IMG/VR virus record: IMGVR_UViG_3300021962_000036
Location: 1 to 64,000 of that record
Reading direction: 5' to 3' (one strand)
Length of the DNA stretch: 64,000 nt
Origin: a virus
Below, piece by piece: positions 3,405 through 63,999 of this stretch. Within the stretch, counting starts at the first letter, position 1. Each line of letters begins with the position of its first letter. The position numbers and the translations under genes were made by a program. Below the pieces are notes generated by a model. It saw nothing but the letters and a program-made list of their open reading frames with translations, had not been told where the DNA came from and did not search any database.

Positions 3405-3416
3405 ATGAATGTATTT

Positions 3417-3446
3417 AAAAAAAGAGGGAGTATTTCATCCCTCTTT
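3417..3446 (-). terminator. intrinsic terminator between the ATPase and vWA genes
   Basis: Stem AAAGAGGGA/TCCCTCTTT with a U-run on the minus strand. Confidence 0.6.
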
Positions 3447-3461
3447 ATAATTTTGGTATGC

Positions 3462-28318: not shown

Positions 28319-28762
28319 ATGGACTTTGCTGGACAATATAAAACCTTGAAAAGAACATCAACAGGATATCCTGCTGCAACGTCATGTGAAGCTCAAACTG
28401 CAGCATGTGTTACTGAATTAATGAACGCCTCTGTTAGCTTTCACAAATTACATTTGAAAGTTACAGGACTTGGTTCATTTTCTGCACATAAAGCATTGAA
28501 TGAGTTATATGATTCTTTGCCAGGTCATGCTGACGCTGTAGCTGAAGGATTTCAAGGAGCATCAGAAAAATTGCTAAATTATGAAGATTCTGCTCCAAGA
28601 ATTTTGAATTCTGTAGAAGAAGCGTTATCTTATTTAAGAGAGATGAAAGAGATGGTATCTGGATTACAAACAATAACACCATATAGTGAAGTTGTAAATG
28701 ACTTAGATAACATTAAAAGTACTATCAACTCTATTAAGTATAAATTGTTATTCTTAAAGTAA
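28319..28762 (+). CDS. ferritin/Dps-like four-helix-bundle protein
   Basis: HKLHL...HKALNELYD......DAVAEGFQG...KYKLLFLK. Confidence 0.7.
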   Translation: MDFAGQYKTLKRTSTGYPAATSCEAQTAACVTELMNASVSFHKLHLKVTGLGSFSAHKALNELYDSLPGHADAVAEGFQGASEKLLNYEDSAPRILNSVEEALSYLREMKEMVSGLQTITPYSEVVNDLDNIKSTINSIKYKLLFLK

Positions 28763-32740: not shown

Positions 32741-34342
32741 ATGTATCCTAATCAATATTGTCATCCTTGCACAGAGCCAACACCATGTGTTCCAGCTCCA
32801 CCACCACCAGATTGTATAGGTGAACCATGTGAAGAAATTGTTCTAGACACATGTGTAAGATATACAGGACCTGCAATTCCATGTCTTGGAATTACTACAG
32901 GTGCAGATCTTAGTCAAGTACTACAAATTATTGCAGCAAGACTTTGTGATTGTTGTGATGGAACACCTCCAGTTGTAAATTGCGTAGTTTCTGCATGGTC
33001 AGAATGGTCAGAATGTATAGATGGTGTTCAGACAAGAACTAGAACAGTAATTCAAGCTCCACAAAATGGCGGTACTGCTTGTCCTCCATTAATAGAAACA
33101 AGATCATGTTGTGAGCCTGTTGACTGTGTAGTATCTGCATGGAGTGATTGGTCAATTTGTGATGGGGATGTTAGAACAAGAACAAGAACTGTTGTTACGC
33201 CAGCATCATGTGGTGGAGTAGCTTGTCCTGTTTTAATTGAAACAGAATCTTGTAACTTACCATTGCCATGTCAACCAATAACAAATATTCTTGGTAGATC
33301 ATTAGATTGTGAAACAATTGAAGTATCATTTTCAGATGGAGCTACAGGTCCAGCAACAAGTTTAGTTGCAGAATTAGTTAGTACAAGTGCACCTTCTGTT
33401 GTTTTACAGTCATTTACTTTCACAACAACTGGCGCTGCTGCATCATATTCTCATACATTTACAGCTGTTGCTCCTGGTTCATACCTTATAAAAGTTTATA
33501 AAACTAGTGCAGCAGGAACTTGTGATGTTGTTACAACTTCTGCTGTAACAGTTGAAGTTTGCGCAACATGTGTGCCATTAACAGACATAGATGTTTTATC
33601 TGACAATTGTGAAACTTTACAAATTTCATTAACTGATGATGGAAACGCTACTGTTTTGTATGCTGAATTATTTAACAATAATGCACCAACTATAGTTGTA
33701 TCTACCAAAACATGGACTCCATTAGGATCAGCTACTGTTTATAGTCATACTTTCACAGGATTAACTCCAGGAAATTATTTTGTAAAAATTTACAAAGATG
33801 CTGGTACTGTAAAATGTGATACAGTTGTAACAAGTGCTGTTTTAGTACAAGGATGTCCTGTAGATTGTGTTGTTTCAGATTGGTCTGCATGGTCTGAATG
33901 TATTGAAGGTGAACAAACTAGAACAAGAACAATAGTTACACCTGCATCAAATGGTGGAACTCCATGTCCTGTATTGACAGAAACACAACCTTGTGAAATA
34001 CCATGTGTCCCTTTAACAAACTTTACAGCAATATCTGATAATTGTGAAACGTTAACCGTTTCAGCAGTAGATAATGGAGAAGCAACAGATTTACATGTAA
34101 CATTGTATAATGCATCTAACCCAACAGTGCCTTTATTTACTCATGATTGGATTCCTACTGGAAATCCTGGATCATACACACATACATTTACAGGTCTTTC
34201 AGGAGGAACTTATATTGCAATAATTTACAAATTGTCAGATCGTTCAACTTGTGATCCAATATCATCAGCAAATGTTGTTGTTGAAACATGTAAATCAGCA
34301 TGTCCTGCACCAACAGGAGTATCAGCTACAGTAACAGCTTAA
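32741..34342 (+). CDS. adhesin-like protein with three thrombospondin type-1 repeats and three Ig/SprB-like repeats
   Basis: 3x CVVSxWSxWSxC...TRTRT...GGxxCPxLxETxxC; 3x CET...YxHTFTxxxxGxYxxxxYK...CD. Confidence 0.85.
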   Translation: MYPNQYCHPCTEPTPCVPAPPPPDCIGEPCEEIVLDTCVRYTGPAIPCLGITTGADLSQVLQIIAARLCDCCDGTPPVVNCVVSAWSEWSECIDGVQTRTRTVIQAPQNGGTACPPLIETRSCCEPVDCVVSAWSDWSICDGDVRTRTRTVVTPASCGGVACPVLIETESCNLPLPCQPITNILGRSLDCETIEVSFSDGATGPATSLVAELVSTSAPSVVLQSFTFTTTGAAASYSHTFTAVAPGSYLIKVYKTSAAGTCDVVTTSAVTVEVCATCVPLTDIDVLSDNCETLQISLTDDGNATVLYAELFNNNAPTIVVSTKTWTPLGSATVYSHTFTGLTPGNYFVKIYKDAGTVKCDTVVTSAVLVQGCPVDCVVSDWSAWSECIEGEQTRTRTIVTPASNGGTPCPVLTETQPCEIPCVPLTNFTAISDNCETLTVSAVDNGEATDLHVTLYNASNPTVPLFTHDWIPTGNPGSYTHTFTGLSGGTYIAIIYKLSDRSTCDPISSANVVVETCKSACPAPTGVSATVTA

Positions 34343-35310: not shown

Positions 35311-36657
35311 ATGAATATTATTTCAGCAGTATACCATAGTTTAAAAAGAAAGAAGTCAGCAGAAGCTGAGTCTCAAAGACTAGGTATTTCAGTATCTTAT
35401 TATCAAAAGATAAAAGAAGAAGTCATTAAAGTTTTAAATGAAGCAGGTTCAAGAATAGATTCTGTTGTCATTCAAATGGTAGAAGCAAATTTAACAAAAA
35501 AATCTGAGTCAGTTTCAAATGAAGAAATTTTATTTGAACTAGAACAACAACTTGGCATTGATGCTAAAGACAGATTCTACAACAAAGAGGAAGATTCTAA
35601 AAGAATTGAAATTCATGAAGATCTAGAATCAGGAACCAGTAAGATCACTGGCCTGTCTGCAACAGAGCCACGTAGTGCAGAAGAAATTATTGCATTATTA
35701 AAGATAGACACAAAGAAATGGAAACTATCTCAATATTGGAATAAAGAGAAAGGCACAAAATGGTTAGTATCTGCTTTAGTTAGTAGAGTACCACAAGAAG
35801 AAAAAATACAAAGTACATTCTTAGAGTTACTTGAAACATATCAAGTTCCACAAATAACACCACTAGACCCTGCAGCTTTTTGGCAGAACACAAGTTCTCA
35901 AGAAAAAGTTTGCGGGGTTCTTTCATTACAAGACTTGCATTTTGGTAAAGTTGGAAATGAAAACATGAAAGAGATCTTAAATGACTCTGTAAGCTACTTA
36001 ATTGACAAAGCTAATAGAAACTACGTCTTGGAGAAGATAGTGTTTGTAATAGGCCCAGATACGCTCAACATGGATACATTTGGTGGTACAACCACTAAAG
36101 GAACTCCAGTAGAGAACTCTGAGATGGCAACAGAGGCTTACATAAAAGCTTTTGATGGTATATGTCAAGCAATAGGTACAGCTAAACAGTTTTGTGAGAA
36201 GCTGGAAGTATTGTTTATACCTGGTAATCATGATAGGTTAAGTTCCTTTCATTTGTTACACGCTGTTTCTCAAGCATTTAAGACATGGGATGATATTAAT
36301 TTTAACGTAGCCTATGCTGAGAGAAAAGTTGTAACTTATGGCTTGAACATGCTTTGTTTTGAGCATGGTGACGTGACTGCCAAAAATAATCCTTTGGTTT
36401 ATGCAGTTGAGTTTCCTAATGAATGGGGAGTTTCTAAGTATAGAATGCTTTATACAGGACACTACCATGGACGCAAGACAACTCAGTTTGTGACTGAAAA
36501 TGAACAAAATGGTTTTGTTACAAGAATAATTCCAGCATTGACTTCATCTGATTATTACCACTATCATAATAAATATGTGGGAAATACGCGTTCTGCTATA
36601 ATGCATATTCATGATTCTTCTAAAGGATTGATCAGTGAATTTACATATACTGTCTAA
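35311..36657 (+). CDS. calcineurin-like metallophosphoesterase (DNA-repair exonuclease-like)
   Basis: DLHFGK, GPD, PGNHD, EHGD, TGHYH. Confidence 0.88.
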   Translation: MNIISAVYHSLKRKKSAEAESQRLGISVSYYQKIKEEVIKVLNEAGSRIDSVVIQMVEANLTKKSESVSNEEILFELEQQLGIDAKDRFYNKEEDSKRIEIHEDLESGTSKITGLSATEPRSAEEIIALLKIDTKKWKLSQYWNKEKGTKWLVSALVSRVPQEEKIQSTFLELLETYQVPQITPLDPAAFWQNTSSQEKVCGVLSLQDLHFGKVGNENMKEILNDSVSYLIDKANRNYVLEKIVFVIGPDTLNMDTFGGTTTKGTPVENSEMATEAYIKAFDGICQAIGTAKQFCEKLEVLFIPGNHDRLSSFHLLHAVSQAFKTWDDINFNVAYAERKVVTYGLNMLCFEHGDVTAKNNPLVYAVEFPNEWGVSKYRMLYTGHYHGRKTTQFVTENEQNGFVTRIIPALTSSDYYHYHNKYVGNTRSAIMHIHDSSKGLISEFTYTV

Positions 36658-37990: not shown

Positions 37991-39091
37991 ATGTTGACTG
38001 AAGTACAATATAAAGAATTTGATGAACTACTTGAGAGTGTCAAGATAGATATGAGAACTTATGACTTAGAAAGTTCAATAGATCCTCAGCAACTAATTAA
38101 AGTTGCCATGAAGGTTAACTATGAGCTAGGTCTTAAAGTAAACCCATCACGTTCAAAAGCTATAGAAATTCATAAAGGTAAAGGTAAGTTACCTCAAGAC
38201 TTTTATGTGTTAAACTTTGCACTTGTATGTGAAGGTCATAATTCATACTACCTACAAGAAAGAGCAAAAACTTATACAGAAGGAATGCTAGAGGGAGTCC
38301 TGCTTGCTCAAAAAATGTTTAAACTTACAGGTGGTAGTAATGTAAGACAATATAGTGTTATAAGAAATATTCTACCAGGAATCAATGTTATAAATCACAA
38401 CATTGGTACTGCAAATATTTTAGTTCAAGCTTTGAGCATTGATGGCAATCTGCTTTCATTTGAAATTCATCATTTAGATAATAATAGTTTTGAATTAATA
38501 TCAGAATCTAGTGAAATTATCACAGAAGTAAGATTGGTTGTAATGGGTGGTAACACAATTGCAACTACAAGTGGTGGAACAAGTGCTGAAATTGTTAGTG
38601 ATTCACAAGGTAAAAAAGTTGTAGCATATAACTTAAATGGTAGAAGATATGAGCATTCTCATTTGATACCATTAAGAATTGAAAAAAGCAAATCAGTATC
38701 AGCTGATTGTTTTAATTTAAACAGTCATGATCCTAATGTAGCGTATATAAAGAATGGATTTCTAGTAACAAACTTTGATGAGGGTGTTGTTTACATTAAC
38801 TACCAAAGTTTAATGGAAGACGACAAAGGAAACTTATTGGTAATGGAACATCCATTGGTAAATGAATACTATGAGTATGCTTTGAAACAGAGAATATATG
38901 AAAACTTGTATATGTCTGGAGAGAATGTACTTAACTATTTACAGTTAGTAGAACAAAAACTTAGAGCATCAAGAAACAATGCTTTGTCTTTTGTGAATAC
39001 ACCTGACTTTAGAGAATTAAAGCAGACATGGGAAATGAATAGAAAAGCACAGTATCACAATTACTATAACATGTTTAAGAGTAGAATCTAA
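37991..39091 (+). CDS. tail tubular protein candidate (P22 gp4-like role)
   Basis: KGKLPQDF...TNFDEGVVYINY...DDKGNLLV; directly upstream of the large tail gene. Confidence 0.6.
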   Translation: MLTEVQYKEFDELLESVKIDMRTYDLESSIDPQQLIKVAMKVNYELGLKVNPSRSKAIEIHKGKGKLPQDFYVLNFALVCEGHNSYYLQERAKTYTEGMLEGVLLAQKMFKLTGGSNVRQYSVIRNILPGINVINHNIGTANILVQALSIDGNLLSFEIHHLDNNSFELISESSEIITEVRLVVMGGNTIATTSGGTSAEIVSDSQGKKVVAYNLNGRRYEHSHLIPLRIEKSKSVSADCFNLNSHDPNVAYIKNGFLVTNFDEGVVYINYQSLMEDDKGNLLVMEHPLVNEYYEYALKQRIYENLYMSGENVLNYLQLVEQKLRASRNNALSFVNTPDFRELKQTWEMNRKAQYHNYYNMFKSRI

Positions 39092-39462
39092 TGGCTGCTA
39101 AAATATTTAAAAAAAAAATAAATCTTGCTATCTATGAAGCTGTAGTAAACTTACGCGTTGTAGAAAGTATGCAAGACATGCAAGAGTATCTTGACAAAAA
39201 AACTAAATCTTTAGTAGATGTTACAGATAGTTATGGATGTGTTTTTGATTTACCTGGTGCAAAAGGATTGGAATATTATATTGTTTATGAAAAAGATAAA
39301 CTTACTATAAATTTAATCTCTCATGAGGTATATCATTTAGCTATTAGAATTTTAACAAACATAAACATAACAGATGAGGAATCAACTGCATGGTTAGTAG
39401 GTTACTTGACAGAAACAATATATAAAGTATTACGTCAGAAAAATTACAACATCAAAGACTAA
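39091..39462 (+). CDS. small zincin-like metallopeptidase
   Basis: HExxH motif ISHEVYH plus downstream DEESTAWLVGY. Confidence 0.65.
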   Translation: MAAKIFKKKINLAIYEAVVNLRVVESMQDMQEYLDKKTKSLVDVTDSYGCVFDLPGAKGLEYYIVYEKDKLTINLISHEVYHLAIRILTNINITDEESTAWLVGYLTETIYKVLRQKNYNIKD

Positions 39463-42400: not shown

Positions 42401-45077
42401 CTTCCATAGAATGGATAGAGCAGGTAGTACTGGTACATGGACTTTGAGAAACTGCTTTGCATATCTTTTCCATAACGGTATTAGAGACTTTTATACAGAA
42501 TCTGAACTTAACATGGCGTTTAGAGACTATGGTGAAGAAGATTTTCAAAAGTTCTATGATGTATATGGTAACTCATTTAATGATGAGGCTACTATGTTTA
42601 GATCAGATTTGATAACTAAACCAATATATAACAAATATGACTTATCACTTAGCACATCCAAGTTGTTTAACAACTTCGCGACATGGGGACAAATTCTCCC
42701 TAGGGACTATGACCCAGCCATATACAACACATGCTTTGAGTACTACCCTAAACGTGGAGTGTACTCTCTCCAACAGCAGTCAGGTCTTAAACGCGATAAC
42801 TGGAGAAACTTCTTACCTCTTAACTATAAAGATTTTGGAGGAAAAATCAACACAATAAAGTCACTGAATGGAACAGGTGCTATAATACTTTTTGAAGATG
42901 CTGAACCTACACAATTTGTAGGTGTTGATCAATTGCAGACTAAAGGTGGTGTAAAAATCACAATTGGTGATGGAGGATTGTTTCAACAAAACATGCAAAG
43001 TCTTGTAAATGCAGATGATGCGTTGGAGTATGGAGCATGCATTTCTTCAAGATCTGCAGTAAATACACCACATGGTTTATTTTATGCTTCTCAGAAGTCA
43101 GGTAAAATTATGCATTATTCTGGTGGCATTGATGAGATATCAAGAAATGGATTGAAGTTTTGGTTTGCTGAAAATTTACCTTCAGAACTATTACGTCAAT
43201 ATCCAGACTATCCATTATATGATAATCCAGTAGCAGGTATTGGAGTACAAGCAATTTATGATCCTCAATATGAATTAGTATACTTTACAAAGAAAGACTA
43301 TATTCCTTTGAGATCAGATTTACACTTTGATGACCCTTCTGGTGTACCATATTATATTTGTGGAACTACTGGTGATATTGACATACCATCTGAAATAGTC
43401 TCAACAAGTATGTTGGAAACTCCAACAACACTTGCTGAAGATCCAGATGCACCATGTAAAGCACCATTAGATTTAGTTTTTGTTATTGACATTACAGGAA
43501 GTATGGGAACTGTTTTAAATAACATTAAAACAAGTGTTGCTAATATTGCTACTGATGCTGTGACAAAATCAAATAATGATTATAGATTTGGATTAATAAC
43601 TGTGAATCAATCTGGTAGTGTTCTTAACGTTGTAAGAGAAGTAATGTCTGCAAATAATGTTGCAACATTTAACACTGCATTACAAGTTGTTACATTGGGA
43701 AGTGGTGGCGGTGAACCAGAACCTACAGACATAGGTGTTAAGATGGTATTAGATGGACAAGCAGGAGTTTTCAGATCAAATGCTATCAAAATGATTATTA
43801 TGGTTACAGATGCTAGACCATCTGGTACTGATGATGCTTATGTTGTAGGTGTTGATGATGTAAATGTTCAAAATGTTTCAAATCAAGCATTAGCTCAGGA
43901 TGTTTTAATATTCCCTATTGCAACAGGTTATGGAGTTAGTGGTCAATATGCATCTACTATTTTACCATTGCATGACATTTATGCAAATACTACAGGAGGT
44001 GTTGCAAGTCAATCACTTACTGGAATTGTAGCAGATATAATTGGTGATTCTATTTTAAATGTACCATGTCCAGAAGTACCATTAGAATGTACTTTTGAAT
44101 CTAATCCATATACTATAAATTTAGGACAATCAATAACGTTGACATGGTCTGTACTTGGTACACCAGAATCTGTAGTATTAATGCCAAATAATGTTGTGGT
44201 AAACGCAACAGGTTCATTGACAGTATCACCAGTTGTAAACACTATTTATCAATTGATAAGTACTAAAGGTGATGTAACAAATATTTGTGAATTAGAAGTT
44301 ATTGTAGTTCAACCAGAAATAATTCAGTGTCCATGCGCATATGATGATCCTAAATGTTTTACTCCATGTGGTTGGACAATCAGTTATGATCCAAAGCAAA
44401 AATTATGGATAAGTTTTCATGATTGGAAACCTAGTTTATTAATGCCTTCACATGAGCACTTCTTTACAATTAAAGGCAGAGGATTTTGGAAACACAATGA
44501 TAGATGGGATAGTTTTGCAAATTACTATGGAGTAGATTATCCATGGGAAGTAGAATATCCTGTGACAACACCTAATAGCGTAACAACTCTTAGAAGTATA
44601 GAATATACACTAGATGTATATAAGTTCTTCAATGATGGTAAAGATTTCAATCATGTACTTGATGAAAACTTTGACAGAGCTATTATACATAACTCAGAGC
44701 AAATGTCTGGTTTGTTGAAACTTAAAATTAAAGGTAAAAACAATCCTTTAGAATTGGTCAATTACCCACAAGCAACAGCTAATGGTATTGACATACTATT
44801 CTCTAAAGAAGAAAACAAATTTAGATTTAATCAATTTTGGGATATTACAAAAGATAGAGGTGAGTTTACAGGTAATGATACACCAATGTGGATTACAAAA
44901 TGTTCAGGTTATGAAAGATCAATTAATCCTAATTATGTAAACTACTTTAAGACACCAACTGAACATAAAAAATTCAGACACTATGGAAACAAAGTGATCT
45001 TACGCAAAAATGTAAGTGGTGACAAGAAAATGATTTTAAAACTAACAAATTCAAAACATCTTAATAGTTCAAGATAA
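39462..45077 (+). CDS. tail stabilization / muzzle protein with inserted vWA and Ig-like domains
   Basis: 1871 aa; FNKGM..D start, GYMRDEVYAF, WTISY...WISFHDW; position before the cargo genes as in crAss-like phages. Confidence 0.75.
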   Translation: MSENFTNTSAAKTNAFNKGMVKDYTDIYISEGLWTNAVNAINNAHYGETGSIGNEPSNKFCANATYDVIGISHKTKTSWVVFSTDDVSSEIGIFDERDCSYTVIVNDPCLGFKKTNLITAVTKENYDCTHSTYFQDNLNPDRVLNLDRVPYKTTGNNLSQDPDCFIPEYTTDLDCDALRLHPLVTQPCVNVKKAQGAGQLNNGSYMAVVAYSENGIRLTDYSLPSQPQALWDHTGIGGSLDITIDNLDKDYDEYELVVIAVINQQTIAKKVGYYSTRQTSVHLDLYNQSLETVELAVIPLKSIVYEKSEKMHSVNNYLIRTGVTTQPYFNYQKQANDIKVQWVAAQYPTDYYHNGGNVTGYMRDEVYAFFIRWVYKTGARSASFHIPGRLSTGVDTNPVSTPDVIYPTETKVWQVYDTATKYLASGTTKDGGVIIAKGDMAYWESTEKYPDDKPDVWGTLCGKPIRHHKMPSNETIHIHSQGGDYIYNLGVEFSNIQHPVDETLTPIKDIVGYEILRGSREGNRTIVAKGLFNNMFEFNIQGSTGRKGLFQNYPYNDIRPDNFLTNDFSVLDSGRGSQSGVESASKLDTHKRNYLSFHAVETNFVKPYIGSNYVKVYTEERGTVTGKYEFPHKHPKHVILTDGAFVTAGIVGLGIALVQAVGKTTLTSEVAPWALALGTGFYYGGTQVSKESAPASIIGDLTTYGITSGLSGFGAGNAAAAIASVAVMIVSGTYYWGQATDQVLDIFRKLGKDRQYMLQYNSHGFYHSYSGVSNSAVPSGLPKAFRRKIADSGAKYIGSGIHDLDATYRINNLNRNKYVAIKLTSDLPDVSSTIDNTKHRIQDGGIDRSNPTKESISTTTVAYYGALKVDFENQYGQLTSVVQLPTDSCIYATEPQLTTLYTTSTIFGGDIYINRYTEKNPYMFFNTWMYDMPTGTEYDYKNYVNGPVPRYWINFDKFDVTDFDVNISLSNGVSFTTPSDFHRMDRAGSTGTWTLRNCFAYLFHNGIRDFYTESELNMAFRDYGEEDFQKFYDVYGNSFNDEATMFRSDLITKPIYNKYDLSLSTSKLFNNFATWGQILPRDYDPAIYNTCFEYYPKRGVYSLQQQSGLKRDNWRNFLPLNYKDFGGKINTIKSLNGTGAIILFEDAEPTQFVGVDQLQTKGGVKITIGDGGLFQQNMQSLVNADDALEYGACISSRSAVNTPHGLFYASQKSGKIMHYSGGIDEISRNGLKFWFAENLPSELLRQYPDYPLYDNPVAGIGVQAIYDPQYELVYFTKKDYIPLRSDLHFDDPSGVPYYICGTTGDIDIPSEIVSTSMLETPTTLAEDPDAPCKAPLDLVFVIDITGSMGTVLNNIKTSVANIATDAVTKSNNDYRFGLITVNQSGSVLNVVREVMSANNVATFNTALQVVTLGSGGGEPEPTDIGVKMVLDGQAGVFRSNAIKMIIMVTDARPSGTDDAYVVGVDDVNVQNVSNQALAQDVLIFPIATGYGVSGQYASTILPLHDIYANTTGGVASQSLTGIVADIIGDSILNVPCPEVPLECTFESNPYTINLGQSITLTWSVLGTPESVVLMPNNVVVNATGSLTVSPVVNTIYQLISTKGDVTNICELEVIVVQPEIIQCPCAYDDPKCFTPCGWTISYDPKQKLWISFHDWKPSLLMPSHEHFFTIKGRGFWKHNDRWDSFANYYGVDYPWEVEYPVTTPNSVTTLRSIEYTLDVYKFFNDGKDFNHVLDENFDRAIIHNSEQMSGLLKLKIKGKNNPLELVNYPQATANGIDILFSKEENKFRFNQFWDITKDRGEFTGNDTPMWITKCSGYERSINPNYVNYFKTPTEHKKFRHYGNKVILRKNVSGDKKMILKLTNSKHLNSSR

Positions 45078-48000
45078 TGAAGGATACAAATAATGTATTG
45101 ATGAAATTTATTAGCACACAGGGTTACAAAAATAGTAGCCCTGATGTTAACAATCCTATTAATGTAATTCCTTCAAATAGAATTACAATGAAGGATGTAG
45201 ATTTTCCAGTACAAGGAATTGATAATTTAGGCAACTCACAATTAATGATGCCAGGTGGTGAATATCTATTTGGTGGCGATTATGTTATTGAAACACCAAT
45301 GAAAAAACAAGGTGGTGAAAAAGATGCAGATATTAAATGTGGCAATTGTGGTTGGTCTTGGAAAGTTTCTAATGGAGGATCAGATCCTTACACATGTCAT
45401 AAATGTGGAGCTGAAAATGCAGAGGTTCAAATGAAAAATGGTGGCCAACATGGTGGTTTAGATAGATGGTTTGCTGAGAAATGGGTTGATGTCAAAACTG
45501 GCAAACCATGTGGTAGACAGAAAGGTGAAAAGCGTGATGGTTATCCTGCATGTAGACCTTCTAAAAGAATTAGTAGTGAAACACCAAAAACAGCTTCTGA
45601 ACTTAGTCAGTCTGAAAAAGATAAATTTAAAAGATCAAAAACATCAAGCAAACGCATTGATTACAATCACAAAAAAAATGAGTTTGGTGGACAAAACATA
45701 TTTGAAAAAAACTTTACAATGGAAGATTATAACAAATTAGAAATGATGGCAAAAGGAGGCAACGTTCCTACTAATCCTGCTTTATGGTCAAGAGCTAAGG
45801 CAGCAGCAAAAGCTAAGTATGACGTTTATCCATCAGCATACGCAAATGGTTTTGCATCAAAATGGTATAAGTCAAAAGGTGGTGGTTGGAGAAAAGCTGA
45901 ATTTGGTATGGAAGTAATGGGTGATGGCGGCACACCAAACAATGCTGGATTTAATGCTTTACCTGATTATGTTCAACAAAAAATAATGAACAATATGGCA
46001 GAAGGTGGTGAAAAAATGCCAGCTGATATTGCACGCGCACGTTTTGCTGCAGCAGGTAATCTTGATCAAATGGATGAATATGGATACGCCTTTGGAGGTT
46101 TCGTACCTGAAATGATGTATGGGGGTGATTATGAAATGAAGAATGGAGGATGTATGGAATGTGGCGGTCAAATGCAAGAAGGAGGAGAACAACCTCAACA
46201 AGAACAAGGATCAAACATTAATGATGCATTAGGTGAAATATCAATGATGTTGGAAAATGGAACAAATCCTAATGACATTTTACAAATGTTAATTGAGCAA
46301 GGTGTTTCAGAAGAGCAAGGTATGGAGATTATTCAGTCAGCTCAAAATGACGTTGTAGAATCTGATTTAGAAGAAGAAGATGTGCCAGTAGATACAGAAG
46401 ATATTGAAGATGATTCTGAAGAATTGTTATCATCTGATGATGAGATGAAGTATGGTGGTATTAAACTTGACCCTAAAAAGAAAGGAACATTTAAAGCACA
46501 AGCTACTAAGATGGGCATGTCTGTACAAGAAGCAGCAGAACACATTTTAGATAATAAAGAAGAATATTCACCAGAGATGGTAAAAAAAGCTAACTTTGCT
46601 AGGAACTTTGCTAAAGAACTTGGAGGACAAATGTATGAAATGGCATCAGGTGGAACAGTTCCTGATCGTTATAAGAATATGGGTTTCTCAAAGGTGGGTG
46701 TTAAAAAACAATCTACGCGTCCTGGAAAAAAATGGATGGTGCTTGCAAAAAAAGGTGATCAATATAAAGTAGTACATGGTGGATGGAAAGGAATGAAAGA
46801 CTTTACACAACATGGTTCTGAAAAACGCAAAGATAGATTTTGGGATAGAATGGGTGGTAGAGATTCTGCAAAAGCAAAAGATCCTTTTTCACCTTTGTAT
46901 TGGCATAAGCGTTTTGGTACTTGGCAAGATGGTGGAGAATCTACTTCAATGTATGACTATGAAAACTATAAAGTTGGAGATCAAAGAACAAACAAGACTG
47001 AATCAAATACAATAAGTTCATTAGAAAATAATGCTTGGAATAGAGGATTAGCTACAGCTAATACATTAGGAGATCCTAGATCAATGATTTGGGCACTACC
47101 TAATAAGGGAATACTTGGAACAGTAAAAGGCATTGCTGGTGCAGCTGCTGGTTTATCTGGTGCTATTTTAGGATATGAAAAATTGTTTAGTAAACCAAAG
47201 ACAACTGAGTATGTTGTAAACAATGATACAAAAGAATCTGGAAAATTATCTGACGTACTTGCAAAAAGAAAAGAAGATCAAGATAAGCTAATGAAACAAT
47301 ACTCTCAACCTAGCATGTACCAAGAAGCTCCTAAAGATGAAATGAATAGAAAACAAAATATGTTACCAGCTGACCCAATGATGCAACCATGGATGAATGA
47401 TGGTACAATACCAAATAATCCTAATGTTGGAATGATGGCTAAGTACGGTGGTGCAATGCAAGAATATCAAGTTGGCGGTCAAAGCAAACCTTTAACATAT
47501 GATGAGTGGCTTGCTGAAAATAATAGAGGTTTAATGGGTGAAGAAGGTAGAGATATGAATGATTATCAACAATACCTTTCATCATTTCAACCTGCTGTAG
47601 CAACAAGTGTTGGAGGTACTGAAGTAGCTCAAACTCCTGGTGGTGCTGCACAACCTACTGACAAATCAGATGTGGCAAAACAATCAACTCAAACTTTTAA
47701 AGGTGATAACGTTGGTGTTATTGCAGCAAACAATGCACTTGCTGGATTAGGAATGGTTAATGAAGTACTTGGTGCAGGTGATTATGAAAAAGAATATAAT
47801 CAACGTTTGAGAGAAATGGGTAATACTATGAATAGATATAATCCTCAGAACGCTGTCAATCCATTTGGTAACTATACATTGAACGCAGGTCCTGCATCAA
47901 ATTTTGCACTTGTTGCAAATACACCAATACAAGACTTTGGTACTAAAATGTCATCAGCTAAATATGGAGGATTAATTCCTTTTATTCCTGCCACAAGACA

Positions 48001-48088
48001 ATATGAAGAAGGCGGTGAGTTTTATGCTGATGAAGATGAGATCAAACGCATTCTTGCAATGGGTGGAGAGATAGAATATCTTGACTAA
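45077..48088 (+). CDS. modular virion cargo polyprotein with repeated xxxGG linkers
   Basis: About 19 [M/Y/F/W/A]xxGG-type motifs separating short Zn-ribbon, basic and acidic modules. Confidence 0.75.
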   Translation: MKDTNNVLMKFISTQGYKNSSPDVNNPINVIPSNRITMKDVDFPVQGIDNLGNSQLMMPGGEYLFGGDYVIETPMKKQGGEKDADIKCGNCGWSWKVSNGGSDPYTCHKCGAENAEVQMKNGGQHGGLDRWFAEKWVDVKTGKPCGRQKGEKRDGYPACRPSKRISSETPKTASELSQSEKDKFKRSKTSSKRIDYNHKKNEFGGQNIFEKNFTMEDYNKLEMMAKGGNVPTNPALWSRAKAAAKAKYDVYPSAYANGFASKWYKSKGGGWRKAEFGMEVMGDGGTPNNAGFNALPDYVQQKIMNNMAEGGEKMPADIARARFAAAGNLDQMDEYGYAFGGFVPEMMYGGDYEMKNGGCMECGGQMQEGGEQPQQEQGSNINDALGEISMMLENGTNPNDILQMLIEQGVSEEQGMEIIQSAQNDVVESDLEEEDVPVDTEDIEDDSEELLSSDDEMKYGGIKLDPKKKGTFKAQATKMGMSVQEAAEHILDNKEEYSPEMVKKANFARNFAKELGGQMYEMASGGTVPDRYKNMGFSKVGVKKQSTRPGKKWMVLAKKGDQYKVVHGGWKGMKDFTQHGSEKRKDRFWDRMGGRDSAKAKDPFSPLYWHKRFGTWQDGGESTSMYDYENYKVGDQRTNKTESNTISSLENNAWNRGLATANTLGDPRSMIWALPNKGILGTVKGIAGAAAGLSGAILGYEKLFSKPKTTEYVVNNDTKESGKLSDVLAKRKEDQDKLMKQYSQPSMYQEAPKDEMNRKQNMLPADPMMQPWMNDGTIPNNPNVGMMAKYGGAMQEYQVGGQSKPLTYDEWLAENNRGLMGEEGRDMNDYQQYLSSFQPAVATSVGGTEVAQTPGGAAQPTDKSDVAKQSTQTFKGDNVGVIAANNALAGLGMVNEVLGAGDYEKEYNQRLREMGNTMNRYNPQNAVNPFGNYTLNAGPASNFALVANTPIQDFGTKMSSAKYGGLIPFIPATRQYEEGGEFYADEDEIKRILAMGGEIEYLD

Positions 48089-51660: not shown

Positions 51661-54285
51661 ATGGCAACATTTATAAAAGGACTTACTGATCAATTTGGTC
51701 CAATGCAATTGTACAAACCTGACTATCAGTTTCTGACTCAGGTGTATGGTACAAGACAGGCTGAATATGATCGTGGTTTTAGCATGGTCAAAAATCTTTA
51801 CAACTCTGTGCTAAACAGTGCATTGACAAATTCTGACAATGAAAGTTTTAGACAGGAGGCTTTTAAAAAGCTACAAGGAGCATTGAAAAGTGTTTCTAAT
51901 GTTGACCTTTCAAATCCTACTAATATCATGCGTGCACAAAGTTTGATTGATCCTATTTCTCAGGATCAAGATATGGCGTATGATATGGCTGTAACAAGAT
52001 TTCATCAAGCACAAAAGCAAAAGATGGAGCAGTACAAAAATAGTTCTGATCCTAAGATGCGTGCAATGTATAGTGATTACAGTAAAATGGATATTGCTTT
52101 TGCAGAAGAAGATTTAAGAGGTGCTAAAAGAGGAGATGGATCTGTACAAAAAGTACAGCCACGTGAGTTTGTTCCATTTGAAGATACAATGGAATATCTT
52201 AGAAAAGCAGCTAAAGAACAAGGATTAGAAATTACACAGTCTGGTCCAGATGGTAATGGTTATATTATTAAACGTGTGAATGGTGCAGGTGTAGCTCCTA
52301 TTTTTACTGAGTGGGCAAAGGCCACAATGGGAACTAGATTTGACAGACAGTTTCAGGTTATGGGACGTGTTGCTGCTGAATCTTCTATCAGAAATGAAAT
52401 GTCAACAAATGGCATAAAAAGAGAAGAAGCAATACAAAAAATCTCACAAAAATTATTACCTGTTTTAAATGAAAAAACTTCTACAGAAGGTGTAACAGCT
52501 GATAAAGAACTTAAAAAAATAGATGATGAAATTTCTCTTTATGAGAAAAAATATCCTAATGGATTCCCTCCAACATTACCACATGTAAAAGAAGACTATC
52601 AAGAACTTTTGAAAAAAAGAGATGATTACAAAAATACACTTGATGGTTCTAAATCTGAAGTTGCTAAAATGCAGCAAGAAGGGCCTCAATATGTAGCATC
52701 TAATCTTTACTCATTATATACAAAAGAGGCAAGAGAAAATGCTGCTCAAACTTTTGGTGGTACGCTTGCTACAGCAAAACAATCTATTGAATATAGACCA
52801 GATACTACGTGGGCAACAAAAGCACACATTGCTTCTAGCGAAAGAATTGCTGGTGCAAGACTTGCAATGGATCAACAAAAACTTAATTGGGATAAAGAGA
52901 AGTTTGGTATTACTACTGAACTTAAGATGATGGAATTAAAAGGTAAAGGATATGTGCCATCAGAAGAATACTTAGGTTCAGGTTTAGGTGCTGCACAAAG
53001 TGGAGCTGAACTTGTTTCTAAAGGTATGAACATCAATAGAGAAAAAGCATTTTCTACAGCATTTAATGCTGAGAATGGTTTAGCTTTACTTGTATTGAAT
53101 GAAGACGCAAAACAGTATTCAGATGTTTACAATACTGTAAATAAGATTAAACAAATGGGTGCTGGTCAGAGAGTTACATTAACAGCTCAAGACAAGGCTA
53201 CATTAAAAATGTATGGTGACAAGTTAGGTATTAATATTACAGCTCCAGGAAATGCTGCACAAGCAACTGGATTAGTTGATGCACTAGCAGGATATACATA
53301 CAAAGCTGCTACAGATAAATTACCAGCTTATTCAAGATTACACAAAACAGGTGACGCAGCAAAATTTGTTCAAAGTTTTAGAGGAGCATCTAATGCATTT
53401 AAAACATTAGAATCAGAAAGAACAAACCTTAATCAAAACATGTTGAGACTTTCTCAAGAAGTTGTTGGTGCTAACGGAAGAGTTAAAGATGCTTATAAAG
53501 GTGCGGTAATTAGAGGAAGACTTGCAAATGGAGCATATGATTTGGACTTATCAAACACAAGTGCTGCTGCAAAACAAAGACTAGGTACTTTAGTGACATC
53601 TGAGTATGCTGCTAGAACAAGACCTGTAACATCTAATTACAAATTCAGTAAGTTAAACGCTGCTGAGATAGAAGTTCTTGTTAAGAATCCATATGCTGTA
53701 AAGTCAATCACTTCATCAGATGGATCTGCTATTGATATGAGTGTGTTAAAGAATATGAATGCATCTGACTTAGCTGAGTTGTTTGGTGATCAAGCAACAG
53801 TTAATTATGATGGTAACAATGCAAATATTCAAGTTAACATTTCTCAGAAATCTGATATAGGTAAAAAGATAGGAATTAAAAATCCTGGTACATTAACATT
53901 TGTATTACCTTATGAGTCTGCTAGAGCAAACAGTGCTTTAGGAAGAATTAACAAGTACGCTACTGTTAACTCAGTGTCATCACAATCACTTGGTGTATTA
54001 GATGATTTCTTAACTAACCCTGGTGCTTCTGTTAAAGGTGAGCAATCTTATAAAGGTTTTGATTTTGATTACAATTTGCAAGGATCTCAAGATGCATCTG
54101 GTAATCCTGTGTTAATTTATAACATTGATTTTTACAATCCTCAAACTAAAAAACGTGAAAATAAAACTTCATATATTCCTTTTAGACCAGGTGATGTAAA
54201 TAGTTTGCTAAAAGCAAATGAAACTATTAACTCTACGTTTGATAATTACATCAATCAGAGAATTCAACATGAATTAGGACAATAA
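51661..54285 (+). CDS. virion cargo/ejection protein candidate
   Basis: 874-aa helical protein in the giant-gene block. Confidence 0.65.
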   Translation: MATFIKGLTDQFGPMQLYKPDYQFLTQVYGTRQAEYDRGFSMVKNLYNSVLNSALTNSDNESFRQEAFKKLQGALKSVSNVDLSNPTNIMRAQSLIDPISQDQDMAYDMAVTRFHQAQKQKMEQYKNSSDPKMRAMYSDYSKMDIAFAEEDLRGAKRGDGSVQKVQPREFVPFEDTMEYLRKAAKEQGLEITQSGPDGNGYIIKRVNGAGVAPIFTEWAKATMGTRFDRQFQVMGRVAAESSIRNEMSTNGIKREEAIQKISQKLLPVLNEKTSTEGVTADKELKKIDDEISLYEKKYPNGFPPTLPHVKEDYQELLKKRDDYKNTLDGSKSEVAKMQQEGPQYVASNLYSLYTKEARENAAQTFGGTLATAKQSIEYRPDTTWATKAHIASSERIAGARLAMDQQKLNWDKEKFGITTELKMMELKGKGYVPSEEYLGSGLGAAQSGAELVSKGMNINREKAFSTAFNAENGLALLVLNEDAKQYSDVYNTVNKIKQMGAGQRVTLTAQDKATLKMYGDKLGINITAPGNAAQATGLVDALAGYTYKAATDKLPAYSRLHKTGDAAKFVQSFRGASNAFKTLESERTNLNQNMLRLSQEVVGANGRVKDAYKGAVIRGRLANGAYDLDLSNTSAAAKQRLGTLVTSEYAARTRPVTSNYKFSKLNAAEIEVLVKNPYAVKSITSSDGSAIDMSVLKNMNASDLAELFGDQATVNYDGNNANIQVNISQKSDIGKKIGIKNPGTLTFVLPYESARANSALGRINKYATVNSVSSQSLGVLDDFLTNPGASVKGEQSYKGFDFDYNLQGSQDASGNPVLIYNIDFYNPQTKKRENKTSYIPFRPGDVNSLLKANETINSTFDNYINQRIQHELGQ

Positions 54286-61700: not shown

Positions 61701-63999
61701 ACAAGGTGTAATTTATCATGAAGCTTTCCACGGTGTATTCAGATTCTTAATGAGTTCTGAAGAAAGACAAAATCTTATCAATGCTGTTTCTGATAATAAA
61801 AAGCATGCTGGTAAGTTCACAGAAAGCGCTCTAAAGGAGTTTGCACGTCAACGCAACTATGTGTATAACAAAGAAGAAATGACGCGCTTACAGGCAGAAG
61901 AAATTCTAGCTGATGGATTCCAAAACTACATGTTAAAGAATACTAAACCAAAAGGTATTCTTGGTCAGTTTATGGCAATGCTTAAAAAGTTATTGGCAAT
62001 GTTTGCTTCTAAAGGAGCTTACATTGATAACGTGTATGGTAAAATCAAAAACGGTCAATATAGAAATGAGGTAATCTCTTCTGGTATACATGAAGGTCAA
62101 ATAGCTTATGAATTAATACCAGGACTTAAGCAGGTAGTATCAACCCCAGCAGGTGTTGGGCAAAGAACAAGTGTCTTGTCTAAAGCAGATCAAGATCAAC
62201 TTGTAAACATGCTTGCAGGATATGTAATTGAAGATGGTCAAAAAGAAGCATTCTCTACAAAATTTGATAGAATTGCTCAGTTAGTATTAGACTATGAATA
62301 TAACATGGATGTTTTGTTAAGAACAAACTCTGAGTTATTTAAGTCTAACCCTGGCCTTAAGGAAAAAGTAATCAAAACAATGGGACCTTTGTATGCTAAC
62401 TACAGATTTATGTTGGGAGCTAGAGCAAAAGGTGAAGCATTGTATGATTTAAATACAACAGATAATCCATCTTATGACAACAGGTTTAACAAAAACAATT
62501 CTGTTAAAGTATATGGTGAAGAAGAAGCACAGGATAATCACTTGGGTCAAGTGTCATATGAGATGCTTAAAAAACAAGTTAAAGAGCAAGTTGATAAAGT
62601 AAACTCTATTCTTGATGGTACTGAAAAGACTTCTGATAAAGATGTTGTTGAAAAAGAAATAGCTGGTGCAAATGAAAATACAATTGCAAATGATGATGCA
62701 GAAGACGAACAAGAAGTTTCAGAATCATCTGATTTTGATGCTTCATTCAATGAGATAAATGCATTAGAGTCTTTGCCAAGACAAATTAGAAAGTTCTTAG
62801 CAGTAGTAAGATATGACCAAGTTCACCCAACATTAGGAATTAAAGTTCCAAGAATGATTGCAGGTGAACAATTGTTTGGTTCACTTATTAAAGTATCTGC
62901 AGAGATGGACCCAAGAAATATTATTGAGCACATCAAGATTGTTGCAGAACAACAAATTGAAGATGGGTACTTTAATTCTGGAAATGACCTAATGGCTGTT
63001 TATGACAAGTTAAGTCGTTACACCAAAATGGATGAGTCAGGAACACCTCAATCTAATAAGCAATTATATAACATGATAGTTGATGTCTTACATAAGACTG
63101 AGATTGATTATGTAATGATTGATGTAAAAACATCACAAACTTTCTTGGAAGGGGATGAGGTTCTTACAGATACAAGAAACTTTACACTTGTTGATAAAGT
63201 ACATTCACAAGATGTAAATAATAAGAAAAGAAATTTAGTTACATCTGTTATTGAGATGTACAAAGAAAATAAAAATAATCCTGAGTACTTAGCTGCAGTA
63301 AATAAATTGTTGCAATTGTCACGTACAATTAAGACAAGCAGTTTTATTTTAAGTGATGTTACATCTCAAAATGCAAAATTAGAAAGTATTACTACTGAAC
63401 TACAAAAAGCATTTGAAGATGTAGGCATGAAGTTTCCTAAGTCTTTGATTAGAATGTCTGTTATGGCAATTGATCAAGTTGATAATAAAGCAACTTTAAA
63501 TATTACAGGAACTCCATTAACACATTATAATAATCACTCTAAATTTATTTCTGAGAAGAAGTATTTAGAAAAAGATTTCTTTACAGATGTGATTAATATA
63601 TTTGAAAAGATAAGTGTAAACAAAATCTCTTCAAATGACTTTGCAGTATTGCTTGATGAAAAGAATAGCAAAAGTGATACAGTTAATCGTTTTAACTCAA
63701 TCATTAAAAAAGCTGCAGAATATATTGTTAAGTATGATCCTAATGAATTACCAAGTACTGTGCGTAACGCAGAGGGTAAACCAATTTACAGATACGTAAG
63801 TTATACTCCTGCAACTATTATTGCTCAGTCTATACGTACAAAAGGTTTACTTGAAACTTTAAAAGAAGATCCTTTCTATGCAGATTTCTTAGAATCTTTC
63901 TATGCTGATAATGCAATGTTAGGTGACTTACTTAAAGGATTAGATACACAAAAAGCAAGAGAAATGAAATTGTTTATGGACAACTTCAAAGTATCATTG
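58768..63999 (+). CDS. giant polyvalent cargo protein with zincin metallopeptidase domain, 3' truncated (not in ORF track)
   Basis: ATG 58768 (MACQIQTDKY); in-frame and open at every point checked up to the window end; IYHEAFHGVF at about 61711-61740 and downstream EEILAD. Confidence 0.85.
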   Translation, partial: MACQIQTDKYTSVVLNLIKLDPSVYSNFDNASKFILGSALTPEQKMMSLHNMAYIYKGLAGIDNKFYNAGNAEGIISAVVLMDDPSKYVSSVSEILGVKKPSALKVESISKAIDKLSSKKNITRQDLISSEGILTSVKNYFSVTVFPTNEEREQLLNEFSTAIKTAITEHDSPQAHKDFLIKQVDEAINSLRKSSSFIPLSDIANLADLNNVLITLTNGQMVEGVRQDEQFKIITSDGSLQTVEASQILTAKDARVADNSRSNAGEQVFQEHTLLSSFSIKAVDSADQFELEKKLANMKNPQAGIKIHAVKLSDVADRRVERIQEAAKQNPKYSSLENREHETFENATQIKALQSSSSKKIMTVSRPKASEQQFVLVGEIIGSGEKFYMYSSDNFVFVSSDNTTERVDFTNPEHMELVKSLAVKNTKEGNKSLSDTDIIAMSESNKLFQGFKASLSDKVASLSDNSLDVTSEFFNAYEASSKRTDINKKQLLKNEIEVDTTLSKPLTVVTMVDGVIANTEVVSVPFIYTKVKNDPYILKPFLAKGQLIQLENGATVSQEVYASDVLGINPSEIQGKIVKPEHGNQLNILLRFNNDGTIGYRSIAPVLQMSQQVEFAKFIVSLANILQTSANRTGDIRNFDRNSYGFKFYNKAKQGPNDDNRAPLRVNFATSKAGQLQIEIRPMDKQGPYGFIAETENKNQFNFPVNEAIITNLAKALLGKGNLVNQVKEAYPALKTLDLTNTKDLVTFYEQVNKLSNSETALPVLKQLSDSIEKAQKEFAEYLVNNIINKLAERTTMFPEFVEQLKKDFTFNGVYRPELLVADTDESGVLYPRIEYAQPAERKEYREDLANFKILQANSKKFTVVPKAATPQVTKSQEVLTPIVESEKIHKQEPLNTIEDDTTDIPDIEVFSLVGDENVIVETDEQRLAASEWLSQSLPQFEIDNGSLADIIDLTKLDGTVLGAFKDRVIYLNNALKGQGVIYHEAFHGVFRFLMSSEERQNLINAVSDNKKHAGKFTESALKEFARQRNYVYNKEEMTRLQAEEILADGFQNYMLKNTKPKGILGQFMAMLKKLLAMFASKGAYIDNVYGKIKNGQYRNEVISSGIHEGQIAYELIPGLKQVVSTPAGVGQRTSVLSKADQDQLVNMLAGYVIEDGQKEAFSTKFDRIAQLVLDYEYNMDVLLRTNSELFKSNPGLKEKVIKTMGPLYANYRFMLGARAKGEALYDLNTTDNPSYDNRFNKNNSVKVYGEEEAQDNHLGQVSYEMLKKQVKEQVDKVNSILDGTEKTSDKDVVEKEIAGANENTIANDDAEDEQEVSESSDFDASFNEINALESLPRQIRKFLAVVRYDQVHPTLGIKVPRMIAGEQLFGSLIKVSAEMDPRNIIEHIKIVAEQQIEDGYFNSGNDLMAVYDKLSRYTKMDESGTPQSNKQLYNMIVDVLHKTEIDYVMIDVKTSQTFLEGDEVLTDTRNFTLVDKVHSQDVNNKKRNLVTSVIEMYKENKNNPEYLAAVNKLLQLSRTIKTSSFILSDVTSQNAKLESITTELQKAFEDVGMKFPKSLIRMSVMAIDQVDNKATLNITGTPLTHYNNHSKFISEKKYLEKDFFTDVINIFEKISVNKISSNDFAVLLDEKNSKSDTVNRFNSIIKKAAEYIVKYDPNELPSTVRNAEGKPIYRYVSYTPATIIAQSIRTKGLLETLKEDPFYADFLESFYADNAMLGDLLKGLDTQKAREMKLFMDNFKVSL

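Follow-up and report, generated by a model that had tools for sequence, protein, structure and literature searches.

CrAss-like phages rank with the most abundant viruses known from the human gut, and they are also common in marine waters. To our knowledge, how these phages load and deliver protein cargo is barely known. Here we describe a 1003-amino-acid (aa) protein, P0001, encoded in the virus record IMGVR_UViG_3300021962_000036, whose first 64,000 nucleotides (the window) make up the left-hand 64 kb of a phage contig 119.9 kb long; the source, a marine phage, is assigned to the crAss-like phages from its capsid and tail-ring genes. An earlier note on this DNA had called the protein a cargo polyprotein, that is, a string of mini-domains punctuated by about 19 xxxGG motifs, and had taken the motif for a cleavage or packaging tag in a plug-in delivery system. 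We find a chain of small modules joined at Gly-Gly (GG) motifs, which we call seams. The motif is restricted to the joints between modules, and it is at these joints that modules are exchanged. We consider it about 45% probable that the seams are processing sites.

Several described systems offer a comparison. The adenovirus protease (adenain) and the African swine fever virus protease pS273R cut virion precursors after Gly-Gly, and some of their substrates are small and basic; the rule for adenain places Met, Ile or Leu at P4. P0001 would share with them a cut after GG in proteins packed with the genome, but its hydrophobic residue stands at P5, so that the site is not (M/I/L)xGG. Moreover, no clan CE cysteine protease was recognized by a Pfam scan that covered 47 of the 98 non-nested open reading frames (ORFs) of at least 90 aa. 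In phage T4, the prohead protease gp21 recognizes (L/I)xE and trims the internal proteins and Alt; small basic proteins are here made as precursors and packed into the head.

A zincin (metallopeptidase, MPTase) has been proposed to release the domains of injected multidomain ‘polyvalent’ proteins (Iyer, Burroughs, Anand, de Souza and Aravind 2017, PMC5512222). P0001 resembles this class: polyvalent proteins are multidomain, encoded among virion genes and thought to be delivered with the DNA, and relatives of P0001 contain ADP-ribosyltransferase and peptidoglycan-enzyme modules. With at least seven distinct modules, P0001 itself has several unrelated domains and is encoded in the virion block. 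It differs in that its modules are mostly tiny basic proteins and that no zincin lies within its 1003 aa. No junction motif is named in the available parts of the 2017 paper, from which the words ‘linker’ and ‘glycine’ are absent.

The closest described protein is gp45 (cargo protein C1) of the gut Bacteroides phage crAss001, which was found in virions (Bayfield et al. 2023, PMC10172136). In both phages the gene comes right after the muzzle gene (gp44) or, in the window, the muzzle-like gene. Furthermore, gp45 has 21 GG in 842 aa and a Gly/Ala-rich hydrophobic stretch, and a module of P0001 (IKxxPxKKGTF...ANFARNF) occurs in proteins that bear the crAss_CARG1 domain (PF25725), for example that of Dulem virus 41. 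On the other hand, gp45 lacks the DUF5872, DUF5754 and zinc ribbon of P0001, and the two proteins match by BLAST at just E=0.21. The crAss_CARG1 model recognizes gp45 (E 2.3e-66) and the Dulem 41 protein (E 2.1e-37); it finds no match in P0001 at E<=0.01, nor in the product of the next gene at E<=1, and P0001 is therefore not filed in that family. By position, architecture and one shared module, P0001 is nonetheless predicted to work like C1. The published account of gp45, in the parts available, describes neither seams nor processing (PMC10172136). A full-text literature search found no description of Gly-Gly seams or of proteolytic processing in crAss-like phages, and the seams appear to be undescribed in print.

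A chain of modules joined at Gly-Gly seams

All 19 pentapeptides named in the earlier note are present in P0001 (residues 76, 119, 201, 224, 281, 307, 337, 346, 354, 360, 366, 457, 513, 522, 616, 788, 797, 961 and 976). The protein holds 30 GG dipeptides, compared with 12.9±3.2 in composition-preserving shuffles (maximum 26 in 2000). More specifically, 16 copies of the pattern [MFYW]xxGG are present where 1.7 are expected; in each of 34 other ORFs the count is 0-3. The mini-domains also bear out the first description, with a zinc ribbon, four basic segments, an acidic tract and a stack of seams following one another along the chain (Table 1).

In an AlphaFold2 (AF2) model built on a 25-row alignment (mean predicted local distance difference test score, pLDDT, 57), 17 of the 19 seams fall in segments with pLDDT <50, which span 42% of the residues (P=2.6e-5). 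The confident blocks are residues 21-75, 229-270, 381-430 and 471-515. Eleven further GG lie beyond the 19, and some of these are not seams. MMPGG, YLFGG and DRMGG stand outside the low-confidence segments, the first two of them within the confident beta module; VVHGG and DRMGG lie within or beside the Pfam DUF5754 match (545-592) and are kept in all aligned relatives. The codons of the GG pairs are mixed (GGTGGT 10, GGAGGA 5, GGTGGA 5, others 10) and track the Gly codon usage of the whole gene. Conservation is therefore at the level of the peptide, not of the DNA.

The motif appears where a module has a neighbour

Two of the basic modules, A (DUF5872) and B (NPxLW...PSAYAN), occur in other proteins both inside longer chains and at their ends, which allows the same module to be compared with and without a neighbour. 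In our own set of loci, GG stands at most 2 residues before 48 of 48 internal starts of module A and before neither of its two N-terminal starts. At the other end of the module, 25 of 26 C-terminal copies lack GG, while 17 of 24 internal copies have it at a distance of up to 8 residues; of the seven that do not, five are short ORFs in which only a basic tail follows the module. Of the internal copies of module B, 18 of 19 have GG before them; the 21 N-terminal copies have none.

A search of an independent library gave the same picture. HMMER, run with the 78-aa module A against 1.84 billion representatives, returned 787 matching clusters at E<=1e-3. Among the best 150 of the 787, all 144 internal starts follow GG and the two N-terminal starts do not (four copies had no anchor), and 84 of 85 C-terminal ends are without GG compared with 49 of 52 internal ends that have it. 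Free-standing copies of module A without a seam occur in unrelated podoviruses. For example, Prochlorococcus phage P-SCSP2 encodes the module as an 86-aa gene between its scaffold and capsid genes; this gene starts exactly at the residue that follows QHGG in P0001 and carries no seam. No free-standing mini-gene with a leader ending in GG was found in the present genome.

Modules are exchanged at the seams

A scan of IMG/VR gave 80 related loci, in which the modules appear in differing subsets and in differing order, mixed with others (ADPrib_exo_Tox, LysM + YkuD, DUF3597, SET and a HELGH zincin-like module). In 20 relatives or more, the equivalent of residues 28-202 is the C-terminal end of an ORF that stops after YNHKRNK, and the next ORF starts with MANKPNNPALW, which corresponds to residue 229 onwards; in other relatives module B is preceded by a 41-aa leader ending in MMKxGG. 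Judged by these sequences, 45077..48088 is a fused form of the split genes, with NEFGG and MMAKGG at the junction. In a close relative, L096, the adjacent 123-aa gene is 91% identical to that of the window; here residues 26-123 are replaced by a SET domain (Pfam E 1.4e-7) plus a HELGH module, and about 250 aa are inserted beside the seam stack (residues 342-370). Overall, of 117 unique breakpoints in homology, 49 are no more than 3 residues away from a GG, compared with 19% at random positions (P=2e-8, calculated on breakpoints that are not independent). The gain and loss of modules that the earlier note had proposed to look for at the motifs thus takes the form of splits, fusions, insertions and swaps exactly at seams. 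The stand-alone homologues it had suggested looking for exist as well, namely module A in P-SCSP2 and the module at residues 462-517 in the phage cr10_1.

This last module is matched by tblastn in Dulem virus 41, cr128_1, cr108_1, cr10_1 and cr127_1. It is 55.8% identical to its counterpart in the Dulem virus 41 protein (E 1e-11), with GG flanks at the same places, and in cr10_1 it forms a gene of 75 aa that opens with a 20-aa leader closed by YKNGG.

The seam itself follows a logo. Across 813 unique GG contexts, P5 is Met in 26% (6.9-fold enriched) or Tyr in 17%, with Trp and Phe also used, and P4 is Gln, Ala or Lys; downstream of GG there are weak preferences only. An independent set of 1333 contexts from 130 library proteins yields the same logo, which is retained across relatives that are merely 35-60% identical.

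The same modules in T4-like cyanophages

Residues 145-295 of P0001 match, by tblastn, a protein of 337 aa from S-BM3, a T4-like phage of Synechococcus (L089:3713-4726). The gene belongs to the cyanophage cluster T4-GC_119, adjoins the terminase genes and has relatives in 497 phage records. Its product contains the DUF5872 and NPxLW modules together with a third that P-SCSP2 encodes separately. At the joints the two proteins differ: S-BM3 has VMKE/DLRDWF where P0001 has QHGG/LDRWF, and IEE/KNVPTNPALW where P0001 has MAKGG/NVPTNPALW.

We compared seven T4-GC_119 proteins from six T4-like cyanophages (S-BM3, L089, and L090-L094). These proteins are strings of small basic modules joined by hydrophobic-x-Glu. 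An [LIVMF]xE motif ends at most 10 residues upstream of 24 of their 27 module starts (random positions 5.0±2.0, maximum 12 in 2000), a count that overstates independence because the seven are mutually related. The proteins resemble polyproteins of internal proteins, as yet unannotated, that a T4-type prohead protease would cut, and they hold the same modules as P0001. On this comparison of sequences, the same small basic modules are strung together in two unrelated lineages of phage: the joints of one carry the site of its known head protease (xE), those of the other Met/aromatic-x-x-Gly-Gly. The likeness to the T4 internal proteins and Alt has its limits, as the site in P0001 is Gly-Gly rather than Glu and processing in the cyanophages is itself a prediction. 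In addition, no prohead protease of the gp21 or HK97 type was recognized by Pfam or PHROG among the ORFs scanned.

Protease candidates

Outside P0001, two proteins carry an HExxH motif: a 123-aa protein (HEVYH) and a giant protein of 3772 aa (HEAFH). In the giant protein the motif reads VIYHEAFHGVF at residue 984, and HEAFH together with a downstream AEEILAxGF is invariant in 7 sequences. The domain is found in four of five relatives' contigs, the fifth being a fragment rated 41% complete, and crAss001 gp47 has TYHEAFHVVF at residue 2157. We regard this putative zincin of the giant gp47-like cargo protein as the best candidate.

The HEVYH protein is a minor candidate. As a universal protease it was rejected, being present in two marine relatives and not found in the seam-bearing crAss001, Dulem 41 and cr10_1; a word-index search returned just 9 near relatives. 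A HELGH module occurs in relatives and is not found in P0001.

Portal, protease, scaffold and capsid form the classic layout around a head-maturation protease. In the uncultured gut crAss-like phage cr10_1 (L003:4649-6180), the interval between the portal and the capsid gene contains a gene for a 432-aa ‘peptidase’ (HEISH), immediately followed by the 75-aa gene with the YKNGG leader. The ORF that follows the portal gene in the window (23427-24680) was considered as a relative of this peptidase and ruled out (best E 3.4); it looks like an acidic coiled-coil scaffold. Also in the cargo region, GG is mildly depleted in two giant proteins (contig 51661-54285 and 58768-70089, + strand).

Processing site, hinge, docking handle or scar

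P0001 is most likely carried in the particle and injected, because its gene lies in the crAss-like virion block directly after a muzzle-like gene, the place of the cargo gene in crAss001 and Dulem 41. It would be the first ‘cargo’ protein, packed into the particle and delivered to the host by ejection, either before the DNA or together with it. We picture it as a polyprotein-like chain in which a beta-rich module, a zinc ribbon, four basic modules and an acidic tract precede a conserved C-terminal core, with a junction peptide at every joint: Met or an aromatic residue, then Gln, Ala or Lys, any residue, Gly and Gly. A virion-borne protease would cut after Gly-Gly, either during head maturation or after ejection, and would so release the small basic proteins from the core, much as internal proteins are released by the prohead protease in T4. 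The HEAFH zincin could be the enzyme. This view keeps part of the plug-in delivery system that the earlier note had proposed, given the portable mini-domains, the motif at their joints, the cargo position and the enzyme modules of relatives (ADP-ribosyltransferase, SET, LysM+YkuD and HELGH). It does not keep the packaging tag.

We favour a processing site over an uncut hinge because the cyanophage joints carry a motif of the head-protease type and because relatives make the modules as separate polypeptides. Several observations weigh against cutting. In the seam stack, seams stand 6-9 residues apart and would yield useless peptides if all were cut, though the stack may be what remains after modules were lost. 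No protease family was recognized by Pfam in the ORFs scanned; the HEAFH zincin is assigned by motifs alone, with an AF2 mean pLDDT of 47; and avoidance of GG in the co-packaged proteins is weak (1 versus 4.6, P=0.05; 4 versus 9.3, P=0.03; none in the others). The cyanophage sites, counted in related proteins, are themselves predicted. A similar zincin is carried by the N4 virion RNA polymerase, which is described as packaged unprocessed in the parts available of Iyer et al. (PMC5512222). The remaining points come from crAss001. In the available parts of Bayfield et al. (PMC10172136) there is no word of cleavage, proteolysis or protease; gp45 is given as one 90.8-kDa chain, and its domain 425-552, resolved by cryo-electron microscopy, runs through GG at 427, 434 and 447. 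Gel bands of 85 and 100 kDa, reported for crAss001 in 2018, are compatible with uncut gp45 (the identities of the bands are outside the part of that source available).

These three GG of gp45 are uncut because they lie inside one resolved portal-bound domain, and their P5 residues are Asn, Asn and Ile, neither Met nor aromatic. As far as the available parts of the structural paper go, the segment bound to the tail barrel (214-245) starts 4 residues after FSAYGG (210), the portal-bound domain ends 10 residues before MFAYGG (563), and no GG is crossed by any of the four peptide regions given in the text as seen by mass spectrometry (MS; 79-101, 181-190, 275-300 and 307-320). Further seams of gp45 are AFAEGG (264), LKAFGG (333) and IAKDGG (374). 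The authors model one gp45 chain from the tail barrel to the capsid (PMC10172136); the positions of the segments, and of the MS regions, therefore leave room for two separate fragments.

An uncut hinge is possible, though we hold it rather unlikely. Here the protein would stay whole, and the junction would serve as a flexible joint, possibly with some minor part in recognition, and allow the beaded chain to thread unfolded through portal and tail, as has been proposed for gp45. The single chain modelled there and the three GG within its resolved domain fit this explanation, as does the failure of Pfam to identify a protease in the ORFs scanned. Likewise, seams that lie in low-confidence linkers and appear only at joined modules suit a joint as well as a cut. 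What speaks for cutting instead is that a plain hinge needs no conserved Met or aromatic residue at P5 and no Gln, Ala or Lys at P4, that the same modules are separate polypeptides in at least 20 relatives, and that the same joints in T4-like cyanophages carry the protease-type motif rather than Gly-rich hinges. A packaging or docking handle, the other half of the earlier note's proposal, seems improbable. The motif would be bound somewhere in the procapsid, in the portal or in the tail barrel, and would so load or position the cargo, with stacks adding avidity; it would explain stacked seams with no cargo between them, the invariant C-terminal tail with its two GG, the free-standing 75-aa protein of cr10_1 with its YKNGG leader, and the start of the tail-barrel segment of gp45 just after a GG. 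An address label, however, would be needed on terminal and free-standing modules too, and it is from these that the motif is missing while it is present on joined ones; for this reason we rate the packaging tag low. We give very little credence to a recombination scar, in which the motif would have no role in the protein and the shared coding sequence would serve as microhomology for module shuffling. Modules are indeed gained and lost exactly at seams, even among close relatives, but the codons of GG are mixed and the peptide logo is kept where relatives have diverged widely.

Implications of a junction code

A wider reading joins these strands, and we offer it tentatively, at clearly less than even odds. 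Crassvirales, including crAss001, would run a virion maturation in which a packaged protease, probably the HEAFH zincin, cuts cargo after Met/aromatic-x-x-Gly-Gly. The tail and capsid parts of gp45 would then be two fragments and not one threaded chain, and the same modules would be head-internal proteins in T4-like cyanophages, freed there by a T4-type protease. If so, the particle holds many small processed internal proteins, and phage lineages draw on a shared pool of internal proteins to which each adds its own cutting code.

A conserved junction code would provide a handle on cargo loading and delivery, since it predicts mature products and can guide a look at virion MS data. It would also explain the free swapping of payload modules (e.g. 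ADP-ribosyltransferase, SET, cell-wall enzymes and small basic proteins). Finally, the correspondence of GG seams in P0001 to Glu sites in T4-like cyanophages suggests that unrelated ocean phages share a pool of small head-internal proteins.

Genome context and features of the locus

The first 100 bases of the contig recur at 118638, so that its ends overlap and the genome is read as a circle of about 118.6 kb. Membership of the Crassvirales is indicated by Pfam matches to Crass_capsid (E 5e-33), CrAss_Ring_1 (E 4.3e-9) and CrAss_Ring_2 (E 2.5e-21). A block on the + strand, from 18 kb on, encodes the large terminase subunit and portal (both PHROG matches), the major capsid protein and tail ring proteins 2 and 1. 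The block also encodes an 1871-aa muzzle-like virion protein and a run of large proteins of 1003, 1145, 874, 1478, 3772 and 1965 aa. The muzzle-like protein matches crAss001 gp44 weakly (BLAST E 0.001), and the stop of its gene overlaps the start of the P0001 gene at 45077, which gives P0001 the position directly after the gene that corresponds to the muzzle (‘stabilization’) gene.

Table 1. Positions of P0001, its modules and neighbouring genes in the window
Feature	Position	Strand	Remarks
123-aa protein with HEVYH zincin-like motif, minor protease candidate	39091..39462	+	phrog_1365
Muzzle-like virion protein, 1871 aa	39462..45077	+	phrog_37948, phrog_15100 ‘virion structural protein’; Pfam VWA
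Cargo-position protein P0001, 1003 aa, module chain with Gly-Gly seams	45077..48088	+	Open frame; Pfam DUF5872, DUF5754
N-terminal beta-rich portable module, residues 26-80, closed by KKQGG	45152..45316	+	Two structural GG (MMPGG, YLFGG)
Zinc-ribbon-like module, residues 81-123, CxxC...CxxC (88-113), closed by MKNGG	45317..45445	+	Read from sequence
Basic module A, DUF5872, residues 128-205, isoelectric point (pI) 9.9, opened by QHGG, closed by NEFGG	45458..45691	+	Pfam E 1.7e-16
Short acidic connector, residues 206-228, ends MMAKGG	45692..45760	+	Resembles the end of the ~41-aa leader in relatives
Basic module B, residues 229-269, NPxLW...PSAYAN, pI 10.0	45761..45883	+	phrog_27331; AF2 pLDDT 87-94, helical
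Four stacked seams without a module between, residues 342-370	46100..46186	+	AF2 pLDDT <50
Acidic tract, residues 371-461, net charge -27, closed by MKYGG	46187..46459	+	Helices 381-431, pLDDT 74-90
Basic module IKxxPxKKGTF...ANFARNF, residues 462-517, pI 9.3, closed by KELGG	46460..46627	+	Also present in gut crAss-like phages
Basic module with DUF5754, residues 527-620, pI 9.5-10.4, closed by WQDGG	46655..46936	+	Pfam E 2.9e-8; phrog_220
Conserved C-terminal core, residues 621-1003	46937..48085	+	Gly/Ala-rich hydrophobic stretch ~679-703; alignment of 10 relatives
Next gene, second cargo-position protein, 1145 aa	48195..51632	+	Three seams; first ~194 aa a portable module ending at MAGLGG
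Giant cargo protein (start), 3772 aa	58768..64000 (to 70089 of contig)	+	HEAFH zincin motif at 61717-61731

Within P0001, the N-terminal beta-rich module is modelled with strands at pLDDT 78-94 and recurs at varied positions in relatives. An apparent likeness, judged by eye, between residues 28-75 and the domain of gp45 that binds the portal was dropped, as a profile from 27 relatives matches neither gp45 nor the Dulem 41 protein. The DUF5754 module is conserved throughout in an alignment of 10 relatives, and its two inner GG are not seams. The same 10 relatives share an invariant tail of the C-terminal core, ...EGGE..(I/L)xAxGGE(I/V)E(Y/F), and the most hydrophobic 19-residue window of the whole protein starts at residue 679. 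A protein atlas search with residues 621-1003 gave a best score of 0.83, to unnamed viral clusters only. Foldseek with the whole-protein model found no match in the PDB at E<=0.001 (the best hits were weakly cupin-like, E 0.2-1), and a PDB sequence search with P0001 and with the next gene returned none at E<=1. The seams of the next gene are MKYGG (217-222), FQDGG (228-232) and FASGG (535-539), the same three that the earlier note had seen recur there.

Other genes of the contig carry unusual domains. Thrombospondin type-1 domains are typical of animal extracellular proteins and unusual in phage; a 533-aa protein of the virion block (32741-34342, + strand) has three such repeats (Pfam TSP1_spondin E 2.8e-36, TSP_1 E 2.5e-13) and may be a surface or fibre adhesin. 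A DUF5856/ferritin-like protein of 147 aa (28319-28762, + strand; Pfam E 6.2e-14) is encoded among the head genes, and an exonuclease-like gene (35311-36657, + strand; phrog_704 ‘DNA repair exonuclease’, E 5e-47) lies within the structural block just upstream of the ring genes. On the opposite strand, a gene pair at 1521-4748 (-) encodes a 428-aa AAA_5/CbbQ_C (MoxR-like) ATPase and a 627-aa protein with a CobT_C/VWA domain. Beyond the window, the giant 1965-aa protein (contig 70091-75988, + strand) has a match to a PD-(D/E)XK nuclease (Pfam E 1.6e-5).

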